From a virus: a stretch of 36,078 nucleotides of DNA. Positions 9,001 through 12,000 of this stretch are shown in pieces. Within the stretch, counting starts at the first letter, position 1, and each line of letters opens with the position of its first letter. The stretch lies in the UHGV virus genome UHGV-2168191; one strand, 5' to 3'. The position numbers are program-made.

Positions 9001-12000
9001 AATGAGATACCCCTGACTGACCAGGCTGCGCATTTTGGCGCGGATGCCCTCGATAATGTCGCGCGCCAGCGACGGGTTCAGCGGTTTGTCCACTGCCCAC
9101 ATGTGCGCTTCTGCCATTGTGTCCGTCAGCACCTGCGCCGTGCGGGTGTAGTTTTCGAAGGCAAAGAGCGGGTCATCACTCAGGCAGCGGGAACCCCAGA
9201 AGCGGAAACCGTCTTTACGCACAAGCGTGGTGACGTCGTTCTGGTTCAGCAGACCTGCATCGGTTGCCGGGTCCTGCAGATCCCAGAACACATCTGCAGA
9301 AATTCCGGTGACACCGTTCACGCCCACGTTGGACAGGCTTTTGTGCCACCCAGTCTGCTCATCAATTTTGGCACGCAGACCAAGCGCACGGGCGGTGGCA
9401 TATGCCGTTGCTTCGGCATTCAGCACCGTGTCCCAGCCAGTAAAGTCGGGCCAGATCAGCATTCCTTCGCGCTGGCTGAAGTTTTCACGGTAAGTGATCG
9501 CCTCCTGTACCGTCTTGCAGCCATACGCTGACAGGTAGGCAAACCCACGCAGGCTTTGCGCCACACTCAGCAACTCAGTCGCAACGGCTTTGTTATCGTG
9601 ACCTGGCACGCCGAGAATGCGCGGTTTAACGCCGAGCTGTGTCTGGGCAGATAACAGGGCTTTCATACCTGTTTTTTTACCTTCAGCAGTCACTGCGCCG
9701 ATGATATTGGTCGTGGTTTCGTCTTCCGTTTCACCCTGCGGCACACGCACAACAATGGTCACGGGTTTTGCCTGGTCAGCGATGGCATCCAGCGAACGGG
9801 CCAGAGTACCTGACTCACCCGCTTTACCGCTGGCAGTCAGCACATCAGTGATCAGCACGGGTTTATTAAGAGGAAACATTTTTGCATCGGCATCATCGCC
9901 CGTGCAGACCATACCCACGATGGCGGTGCTCACCGTGGTAATGGATCGGGTGCCTTCGTTGACTTCAACAACGCGCACCCCGTGGTGGTAATCCTGAGCC
10001 ATAGTGGCGAACCTCCTGATTGGATTAGGCTTCGCCCTATGTTGAAGTGATTGTGCCTGACAAACAGCTAAGCGCAGTTGTATCGTTATTCACACAAAAT
10101 GACGGTATTTGTCTGCTTGCAGGGATAATCAAAATAATGCTGATTCAGGGGGATTCATTACTCTTATTTGCCGGAAATTTTCTATAAATTGTGGAAACAC
10201 CCACATCAAAAATCAGTGCAATACGCTGTCTTGATTCTCCGGCCTCGAGTAAACGCCCAATCTGTGCCCACTGTTCGGTGGTCAACTTAGGACGGCGTCC
10301 ACCTACTCTGCCTTTGGCACGAGCTGCAGCCAGCCCTGCCCTGGTACGTTCAACTATCAGTTCGCGTTCCATTTCAGCCAGGGCACCCATGACATGAAAA
10401 AAGAAACGGCCCATTGGGGTACTGGTATCAATACTGTCAGTCAGGCTTCTGAAATTCACACCACGCTGGCGCAACTCTTCTATCAGCGTAACAAGATGCC
10501 GCATACTGCGCCCCAACCTGTCCAGCTTCCAGACAACCAGCGTGTCTCCTGCCGATAGTGTCCTGAGTAGTTTTTTCAGCCCCGGTCTGTCGGACTTAGT
10601 GCCACTGATTTTGTCCTCAAAAATCCGCTCACATCCCGCGCAGTTCAGTGCATTACGTTGCAAATCGGTGTTCTGGTCATTTGTTGACACGCGTACATAG
10701 CCAATAAGCATGATCATCCCCCTGAATAAAAACCGGAGATGATGCCAGTTAGCTGTTACCTCTGCATTTTCTTAAACGTTGGTTTGGGAGAAGCGGCAAA
10801 ACGAAATGTGGGCAACGGGGAAAACCAAATCCCTGATATGTCTTTCTGGACGGTTACTGGTGGCAATGGAAATTTTGTGATTCGTCAACCTGACGGGCTA
10901 ATCATTCAGATGGTTACTGTAAGTATAAGCGGTCCAGTGGCGATGAATGGAATGACTGATAATGCTTATGCCATTACAGGTTCTAATAAGTCTTATATTG
11001 CCACAGCCACATTGCCCTTTGTATTTCCTAATAAGGTACTGGGCGTTATCCCTCTGGTATCAACAACAGCTTATGGTGGTGTATCCAGTAATATTACAGG
11101 TTCATACGCGACTGCGGTTTGTTCTTTTGCCGCTGTCAGGGGGAATAATACGATTGTGTTCAAAGTCGACAAACCACTGAATGCAGCCTTTCCTTCAGAT
11201 ACCAGCGTCTCAGCGTTAATCATTGGACGGTAATAATGAACTCAGTATTCTTTTCACCCGGAAGTAAAAGTTTTTATCTGCAAGAATTGTTTCCAGAATA
11301 TGAGGATGCGGGAACGCTTCCTGATGATGTTATTGAAATTACCAGAGAAACATATGAGCAATTTCTTGGGCTGCATCCAGAAGGGAAAGAAATTGGCGCT
11401 GATAGTTCAGGACGGCCAGTATGGATTAATTCCCCACCCCCTTCAAAAGAGGATGAGGTGCTGGCGGCTGAAATGAAAAAAATATCTTTGGTTTCAGAAG
11501 CCAATACCTACATCAATACCCATCAGTGGCCTGGCAAAGCTGCTATTGGTCGTCTGAAAGGTGACGAGCTGGAACAATATAATTTATGGCTGGATTATCT
11601 GGACGCACTGGAACTGGTTGATATCTCCAGTGCTCCAGATATTGAATGGCCTACGCCTCCGGCAGTTCAGGCCAGATGACATCCGGCGCGGTGCTGGTAT
11701 CTGTTGCCGTCACCGCGTCAATGTAATCCAGCACAGCGTTAAGCCGGGTTGTTTCTGCCTGCGTCAGCTTCCGCCCGGCCTGTAATTTCAGTTGAATCAG
11801 ACTAATGGAAGCCATTGCAGCATCAATCAGTGACTGACGCTGTGCTTCTGCCGCTTCGACTGCTGCGCTATGCTGTGCCTCAGTATCTGTTACCCATTTC
11901 TCACCATCCCATTTATCGTATGGCGTTAACGGGGCGATAGTGGTCGTGTTTTCAGGGTAATCACCCGGAGCTGTGATTTCTTTTGATTCTCCTGTTTCGG

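Follow-up and report, generated by a model that had tools for sequence, protein, structure and literature searches.

A probable P2-like late promoter, in an inherited layout, between a DNA invertase gene and FI, and a hybrid joint placed in the tail-fibre cassette of UHGV-2168191

The window analysed here is the whole 36,078-nucleotide stretch of virus genome UHGV-2168191. It contains DNA of a P2-like (Peduoviridae) prophage that adjoins rybB/ybjL in an E. coli chromosome. The genes and sites on which the argument depends are given below in order of position.

2856–3074, minus strand: ogr-type late activator gene, 72 aa, zinc finger (Pfam Ogr_Delta, E 5e-22)
3165–8820, minus strand: P2-like tail genes D, U, T (tape measure), E′, E and FII (tube) (Pfam GPD, GpU, TAC_7, Phage_tube)
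8830–10002, minus strand: FI tail sheath gene, 390 aa (Pfam sheath domains; 67% identical to P2 FI)
10003–10144, minus strand: intergenic gap with putative pF-type late promoter and F-operon 5′ leader (alignment to relatives)
10012–10017, minus strand: AGGAGG ribosome-binding site, 9 nt before the FI ATG (read directly)
10039–10044, minus strand: −10-like hexamer CAACAT, aligned with P2 GAAAAT (alignment of relatives)
10079–10096, no strand assigned: TGT-N12-ACA dyad, TGTGTGAATAACGATACA, putative Ogr-binding site at about −55 (read directly; conserved)
10145–10717, minus strand: Gin/Pin-family DNA invertase gene (Pfam Resolvase and HTH_7); probable start MLIGYVRVST at 10711
10767–10792, minus strand: inner 26-bp crossover site, TTCTCCCAAACCAACGTTTAAGAAAA, core AA at 10780–10779 (inverted repeat; compared with Mu gix)
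10781–11233, plus strand: silent alternative fibre C-terminus Sv′ (Pfam Gp53-like_C, weak)
11236–11679, plus strand: silent alternative tail-fibre assembly gene tfa′ (Pfam Caudo_TAP, E 3e-28)
11651–12256, minus strand: tail-fibre assembly gene of tfaE type, in expressed orientation (Pfam Caudo_TAP, E 1e-32)
12100–12761, no strand assigned: interval that must hold the joint between P2-like and X prophage DNA (per-bin identities)
12253–13146, minus strand: tail-fibre gene in hybrid context, 297 aa (collar domain; per-bin identities)
12736–12761, plus strand: outer 26-bp crossover site, TTCCCCCAAACCAAGGTATGAAAGAA, core AA at 12748–12749, within the fibre gene

Read on the minus strand, the invertase stop codon (10147–10145) is separated from the FI ATG at 10002 by a gap of 142 bp. 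Downstream of FI, the tail genes from FII to D are colinear, at 96–99% identity, with their annotated counterparts in the EA7 prophage, Cartapus and 500465-1, and the position of ogr, whose reading frame is intact, is that of the annotated ogr of the EA7 prophage. A sequence-only reading of this DNA had described a TGT-N12-ACA dyad and an AGGAGG ribosome-binding site as retained upstream of FI, and both were indeed read there (10079–10096 and 10017–10012); GGAG is present at −14 in all relatives compared. The bare dyad pattern occurs 11 times in the window against 10.65 expected, which is chance frequency, so the significance of this copy comes from its position and conservation. The dyad is kept, with differing spacers, in three diverged types of upstream region (that of the window, that of SEN8/SopEPhi, and that of Klebsiella 4LV2017), and in all three the distance between its centre and a conserved −10-like element, xAAxATA, is exactly 43 nt; AA.ATA is invariant in the alignment of gap relatives. 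The annotated activator site and start site of P2 pF have the same geometry; taken with the dyad/−10 spacing, this gives a predicted start near 10032, derived from the P2 start-site annotation, and a position of about −55 for the window dyad.

The core promoter appears to be a weak one: no consensus sigma-70 promoter was predicted on the FI strand in 9800–10900. A terminator scan predicted no terminator on that strand between the invertase gene and FI, and Rfam gave no match in the gap, its one match being RybB. Of the four late operons, the one that the putative promoter leads is F (FI-FII-E-T-U-D), and the element encodes a cognate Ogr/Delta zinc-finger activator. Ogr (2856–3074) would bind the dyad at about −55 and bring RNA polymerase to the weak core promoter; transcription would begin near 10032 and FI would be translated from the AGGAGG site. 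Both the promoter activity of the gap and its dependence on Ogr are predicted from P2. Like the putative promoter of the window, the annotated pF of P2 (NC_001895), which Ogr/Delta activates, lies directly upstream of FI, with the same operon content and an Ogr-family gene at the operon end, and with the activator site centred ~83–85 nt before the ATG and ~43–45 nt before a weak −10. The P2 gap cannot be aligned with that of the window beyond these motifs, and its site reads TGT-N12-CCA, whereas the dyad of the window is perfect; the imperfect P2 dyad, as read here, means that the consensus is loose. The gene upstream of pF in P2 is fun(Z), on the opposite strand, where the window has the invertase gene.

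The product of that gene is a small serine recombinase with the catalytic serine (in YVRVSTNDQ) and a C-terminal HTH, and it matches the Mu Gin structure 3UJ3 with an E value of 8e-93. Two 26-bp crossover sites in inverted orientation, the outer one within the fibre gene, bound a segment of ~2 kb; in a hand alignment, 17 of the 26 positions of the inner site agree with Mu gix. A Fis-enhancer scan of the invertase gene found one Fis-like motif shared with Mu gin, at nucleotide 71, and no clear second. The closely related serine invertase of the Mu G segment, Gin (also P1 Cin and e14 Pin), is alike over 184 aa, and the Mu-type switch likewise has 26-bp inverted crossover sites within the fibre gene, the invertase just outside the segment, and two opposed cassettes, each with a C-terminus and its chaperone. 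The segment is ~2.0 kb in the window vs. 3 kb in Mu, the crossover core is AA where the gix sites of Mu have TC, and the host element is P2-like whereas Mu is a transposable phage. The core of hix crossover sites is AA.

The 297-aa fibre protein of the window joins an X-type N-terminus (13146–12750) to a C-terminus cassette (12747–12253) that is common to P2-likes, and the assembly gene beside it (11651–12256) is annotated as tfaE in relatives. In-silico inversion joins Sv′ in frame to the same N-terminus; the fibre is thus open in both states, with 297 aa in the present orientation and 283 aa when inverted, and each alternative C-terminus is accompanied by a cognate chaperone gene. Both orientations occur among relatives, the cassette being flipped in 2015C-3121 and in expressed orientation in OkiPb01712. 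Inversion of the segment would swap the fibre C-terminus together with its assembly chaperone; such inversion has been demonstrated in P2-like prophages of EPEC (PMC4272514).

The place of this module, between the fibre-assembly gene (G/tfa) and the FI promoter, is an accessory slot with varied cargo: fun(Z) in P2, a sopE cassette and an invertase fragment in SopEPhi, an invertase and invertible fibre segment in SEN8, and nothing in Klebsiella 4LV2017, with homology restarting at the FI ATG. The cargo in the window is a host-range switch (invertase and fibre cassettes) and not a lysogenic-conversion or defence gene. Use of the P2 G–FI slot, one of two origins that had been suggested for the gap, is therefore upheld in the comparative sense that cargo varies among P2-likes. 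The accompanying statement that the G/H fibre genes are replaced holds against P2 itself only; the invertible segment carries genes of that kind, for a fibre C-terminus and for fibre assembly. Invertases are often found in the Z/fun hotspot (bioRxiv 10.1101/2024.10.15.618418), and Fels-2 carries the invertase fin (PMC7953296). The invertase-in-slot architecture is old, widespread and already described (bioRxiv 10.1101/2024.10.15.618418; PMC7953296; PMC4272514) and is not specific to the window.

Among Felsduovirus, Fels-2, SEN8 and SopEPhi have fin or its remnant in the same slot with an invertible fibre segment (PMC7953296), and the geometry of dyad and −10 is conserved as in the window; FI is ~81–87% identical at the nucleotide level, the gap has diverged, and SopEPhi adds the sopE cassette. 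Nearer relatives are Cartapus (Elveevirus), 500465-1 (Wadgaonvirus), Klebsiella Kp48xx/KP12 and the EA7-like ybjL prophages, in which invertase, gap and FI are 97–99% identical to those of the window. These invertase-bearing Peduoviridae have its gene order (fibre, tfa, tfa′, Sv′, invertase, FI ... D, ogr) and continue upstream with a P2-type H N-terminus, I, J, W and V; in the window, by contrast, what follows are genes of an unrelated lambdoid myovirus, for its baseplate, tail and head.

The other suggested origin, that the gap is the recombination breakpoint of this hybrid, is hardly conceivable in the light of the relatives. GC content does fall, being 0.567 in FI, 0.43 in the gap, 0.50 in the invertase gene and 0.46 in the invertible segment and beyond, and P2-likes with unlike slot contents begin to match one another at the nucleotide level from the FI start codon. 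The earlier description of a sharp change in base composition is roughly right; the profile consists of a step and, in the intergenic DNA, an AT-rich dip, and the step recurs in every relative that bears the module. Among 5,426 complete E. coli genomes, 695 have the joint of invertase, gap and FI, as do 19 phage records, with gap and flanks 98–99% identical; the phages Cartapus and 500465-1 that bear it are classified in Peduoviridae. The window is colinear at 98% from 1 to 12318 with the complete P2-like prophage of E. coli EA7 at the same ybjL site, which carries colinearity 2.3 kb beyond the gap, and foreign X DNA begins only at ~12100–12761. No parental lineage's homology ends within 10003–10144; P2-like homology is unbroken through gap, invertase gene and invertible segment, and the breakpoint claim is refuted. 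That reading had itself named uninterrupted homology to P2-like phages through the invertase and fibre genes as the observation that would count against it, and alignment gave 96–100% identity to other P2-likes up to 12758–12761. The invertase and its segment occupy the slot in a large P2-like subgroup, so a stop codon 142 bp from FI is an inherited layout and no scar. The gap is very probably a pF-type late promoter and leader in an inherited P2-like layout, with the real joint at ~12100–12761 and arising likeliest by fibre-cassette recombination. As such, the finding at the gap is already known: a textbook P2-type late promoter beside a common, annotated and described module.

The hybrid junction, placed in the gap by the earlier reading, is to be moved to the shared fibre cassette, a place at which phage families are expected to show tail-fibre mosaicism. 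Identity of the EA7 type decays after ~12100–12318; other P2-like prophages run on at 96–100% to 12758–12761, and all stop at the outer crossover site. Homology of X type begins at 12250 in L017, there at 96–100%, and at 12500 in KCJ3K291; over the run to 36071 it is 97–100%. By these identities the joint appears to lie either inside the cassette of expressed fibre C-terminus and assembly gene or at the crossover site on its outer side, and its position is only bracketed because fibre cassettes are mosaics common to both phage families. To the right of it lies a lambdoid myovirus prophage, here called X, with a DUF3383 sheath, whose nearest isolated phages are Edwardsiella Edno5 and GF-2; a Mu-like identity for this second tail module was considered and rejected. 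The X fibre N-terminus would have been joined in frame to the cassette, at the outer crossover site or close to it, most likely by recombination within the fibre cassette common to both families.

The joint might instead be an assembly chimera, in which two prophages, or two strains, were mis-joined across the shared fibre cassette. The near-identical shared stretch, of up to ~650 bp, exceeds short reads. Looking up the hybrid fibre as an exact protein gave no match, the contiguous joint is absent from the set of 5,426 complete E. coli genomes, and a 100%-identical protein (P0001) is found on a single JGI/IMG contig among ~15 billion proteins; the metagenome matches listed include neither a second copy nor the source contig. 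Against mis-assembly, an independent ENA contig, L017, combines an X backbone and an invertible segment with a fibre that is 98% identical, which indicates that X-plus-switch genomes are real; the fibre reading frame of the window and both inversion products are intact; and the JGI contig, 232,588 bp long, runs through the repeat, as would be more expected were the cassette single-copy in the genome. An artefact of this kind has some plausibility but is unlikely.

The invertase itself could have made the joint in trans, by recombining the site in an X fibre gene with a P2-like site at the 2-bp core, so that the X fibre gained a switch. A complete 26-bp site stands at one and the same codon position in X fibre genes, also where the prophage lacks an invertase; homology to all P2-likes stops within the right half-site; and both fibre variants remain in frame. 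Action in trans has a precedent in Kutsukake et al., cited in PMC4272514, where the second invertase was reportedly Fels-2 Fin acting on the hix sites. Yet the ~260–650 bp to the left of the site are also common to the two families at 96–100%, so that ordinary homologous recombination explains the joint equally well, and L017, which is an X-type prophage and has this fibre together with a switch of its own, points to a possible crossover further left, near 12100–12300. The sole SNP in the half-site (TTCCCCC vs. TTCTCCC) is not family-diagnostic because L017, though of X type, has the P2-like allele. Gin-family enzymes, moreover, normally require their sites in cis and in a defined topology. 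An origin by the invertase in trans is quite improbable on this evidence. Its extension, that crossover sites in fibre genes are portals between unrelated prophages and that the P2-like Gin-type invertase recombined its own site with the one in the fibre gene of a lambdoid myovirus prophage on the same chromosome, fusing the two elements, is a still more doubtful proposition; such a fusion would proceed by deletion, inversion or insertion and, if true, would give a foreign phage a ready-made host-range switch.

Recombination within the shared fibre cassette stays the preferred source of the joint. If the hybrid is real, it provides one concrete case in which a P2-type inversion switch is coupled to the fibre gene of a lambdoid myovirus, with the ogr-pF-F operon left as a stranded remnant.

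The 142-bp gap between the DNA invertase gene and the tail sheath gene FI (10003-10144) had been interpreted, in the sequence-only reading, as either the recombination breakpoint of a hybrid or a use of the Z/fun accessory slot of P2. The TGT-N12-ACA dyad and the AGGAGG motif upstream of FI, as well as the 3′ end of the invertase gene about 140 bp further on, were all read where that account had placed them, among the following features:

2700-2778, plus strand: RybB sRNA gene (Rfam, 105 bits)
2856-3074: Ogr_Delta zinc-finger gene, 72 aa, downstream of FI with FII, E/E', T, U and D (Pfam and relatives' annotation)
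10002-8830, minus strand: FI tail sheath gene, 390 aa (Pfam sheath domains; 67% identity to P2 FI)
10003-10144, minus strand: gap, 142 bp, invertase stop codon to FI ATG
10017-10012, minus strand: AGGAGG, 9 nt ahead of the FI ATG
10044-10039, minus strand: CAACAT, read directly in the gap
10096-10079, minus-strand reading: TGTGTGAATAACGATACA, a perfect TGT-N12-ACA dyad, read directly
10717/10711-10145, minus strand: invertase gene, 188/190 aa (Pfam Resolvase and HTH_7; Mu Gin structure 3UJ3, E 8e-93)
10767-10792, minus-strand reading: inner inverted 26-bp crossover site, TTCTCCCAAACCAACGTTTAAGAAAA, AA core
10781-11233, plus strand: Sv', silent fibre C-terminus, between the crossover sites
11236-11679, plus strand: tfa', silent assembly gene, between the crossover sites
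11651-12256, minus strand: tfa, assembly gene, between the crossover sites
12253-12747, minus strand: Sv, expressed fibre C-terminus, between the crossover sites
12736-12761: outer inverted 26-bp crossover site, TTCCCCCAAACCAAGGTATGAAAGAA, AA core

The breakpoint interpretation is refuted by alignment, which carries P2-like homology unbroken through the invertase and fibre genes, the very outcome that the sequence-only reading had set as its refutation. E. coli EA7 carries, likewise at ybjL, a complete P2-like prophage with which positions 1-12318 are colinear at 98% identity, and this rules out the gap as the mosaic joint; the EA7 prophage goes on with H, I, J, W, and V and with lysis, head, and replication genes, as is normal for the P2 type. 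At least 80% of positions 1-12300 is covered in 739 of 5,426 complete E. coli genomes, and a 451-bp piece running from the 3′ end of the invertase gene across the gap into the 5′ end of FI occurs in 695 of them, almost always at 95% identity or more. The same piece is spanned at ≥95% by 19 phage records, including Cartapus (Elveevirus), 500465-1 (Wadgaonvirus), and a series of Klebsiella phages.

The accessory-slot interpretation holds in the comparative sense, as the slot between the fibre-assembly gene and the late promoter pF, which heads the F operon, is variable across the P2-like family: it contains fun(Z) on the opposite strand in P2, a sopE cassette and an invertase fragment in SopEPhi, an invertase and an invertible fibre segment in SEN8, and only a 133-bp gap in 4LV2017. 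In the SopEPhi record (locus L008, 2561-4385), aphT replaces the sopE cassette; the cassette and the invertase fragment, of 67 aa, lie in the G-FI slot that holds the invertase module in the window. In phages that differ in slot content, nucleotide homology to the window starts at the FI start codon. GC content (0.567 in FI, 0.43 in the gap, 0.50 in the invertase gene, and 0.44-0.49 in the fibre cassettes) has the same profile in all carriers of the module, which fits an old module boundary. An invertase in the Z/fun slot is thus a known and common architecture, and its presence here is ordinary: DNA invertases are often found in this hotspot of P2-like phages, with neighboring genes inverted (bioRxiv 10.1101/2024.10.15.618418), Fels-2 has the fin invertase beside an inverted fibre gene (PMC7953296), and sequencing and PCR have shown that inversion occurs in EPEC P2-like prophages (PMC4272514).

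Matches to TGT-N12-ACA in the window number 11, against 10.65 expected; the dyad pattern alone is no better than chance, and position and conservation carry the promoter evidence. When the 160 nt upstream of FI were compared in ten P2-like elements, the dyad was found to be kept, with differing spacers, in three diverged upstream types (the window type, SEN8/SopEPhi, and Klebsiella 4LV2017), its center and a conserved xAAxATA element being exactly 43 nt apart in each, while leader lengths differ (42, 38, and 40 nt). In P2, the annotations of the pF activator site, the start site, and the FI ATG show this geometry too, and by analogy transcription in the window is predicted to start near 10032, with the dyad at about −55. 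Neither a sigma-70 consensus promoter nor a terminator is predicted on the FI strand within the gap, which fits an activator-dependent promoter; from P2 biology, the activator would be Ogr.

Beyond the Ogr_Delta gene, ybjL-ybjM-grxA matches E. coli at 99-100% identity. About 78 nt separate the RybB gene from the end of the P2-like DNA where ogr lies, and in 739 of the 5,426 genomes this prophage family directly follows rybB, adjoining ybjL, which suggests the rybB 3′ end as its attachment site.

The invertase retains the catalytic serine motif (by comparison with 3UJ3), and both 26-bp sites are similar to Mu gix. A scan of the invertase gene for a Fis enhancer turned up one Fis-like motif in common with Mu gin, at nucleotide 71, and no clear second site. 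The present fibre of 297 aa joins the N-terminus (13146-12750) in frame to Sv; in-silico inversion puts the N-terminus in frame with Sv' (283 aa). The junction peptide reads ...LGLGE. Strain 2015C-3121 has the Sv-tfa cassette flipped beside the invertase, and OkiPb01712 has it in the expressed orientation; both orientations being seen, the segment does invert in this lineage.

The part of the window from about 12500 to 36071 matches, at 97-100% identity, a lambdoid myovirus prophage type, here called X, which occupies several E. coli sites (dacD, torT, ybhB-bioA, and purK) and encodes a DUF3383 sheath, DUF2612 wedge, gp47-type baseplate, DUF1073 portal, and lambda-like Q/nin/lysis functions; among isolated phages, Edwardsiella phages Edno5 and GF-2 are closest to it (75% sheath identity). 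The P2-like/X joint, the only mildly interesting item of the finding, is bracketed by alignment to 12100-12761: EA7-type identity falls off from about 12100 and is gone at 12318, all P2-like prophage homology ends at 12758-12761, within the right half of the outer crossover site, and the fibre of an X-type contig (L017) matches that of the window at 98% identity from 12250 rightwards. Other P2-like prophages (2015C-3121 and OkiPb01712) are 96-100% identical from 12100 to the outer site, around which SNPs do not tell the two families apart.

The fibre cassette is common to both families, and the joint most likely arose by homologous recombination within it. Geometrically, the joint could stem from a deletion between direct cassettes or from a single crossover that inserted X into the P2-like prophage, since a close relative of X whose DUF2612 protein is identical (L014) adjoins ybhB-bioA and, on the K-12 map, has the same orientation relative to ybjL as X in the window. 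Invertase-mediated exchange at the crossover core is possible but unsupported. The joint may also be an assembly chimera: the exact hybrid fibre was found on one JGI contig only, with no second copy in the scanned metagenome contigs among the matches listed, and the hybrid joint is in none of the 5,426 complete E. coli genomes searched.

The invertible segment of L017 is its own, and its invertase differs from that of the window (76-90% nucleotide identity), so X-type phages can carry an inversion switch natively; positions 1-4310 of this contig (ENA ERZ27280641 k141_103493) hold a tfa/tfa'/Sv' segment and a crossover site, together with the beginning of this Gin-type invertase. A native X prophage without invertase (L004 8995-9093, E. 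coli KCJ3K291) retains a complete 26-bp crossover site within the fibre gene and part of an inverted tfa gene, which together look like the remains of a lost inversion switch. In E. coli Z1323CEC0013 (L011, 8187-10855), 375 bp separate an X-type tfa and truncated fibre gene from a lambdoid excisionase/integrase pair oriented toward them, a permuted layout that suggests tandem or non-att integration. Positions 12762-36078 of the window form a second, complete-looking myovirus morphogenesis module, which belongs to the X prophage type, itself poorly represented among isolated coliphages. Amid its tail genes, P22-type antirepressor (Ant), Arc-like, and P63C-domain genes (18325-21852) are about 94% identical to antirepressor regions of Stx-converting phages, and look like a moron-like insertion common to unrelated lambdoid phages.
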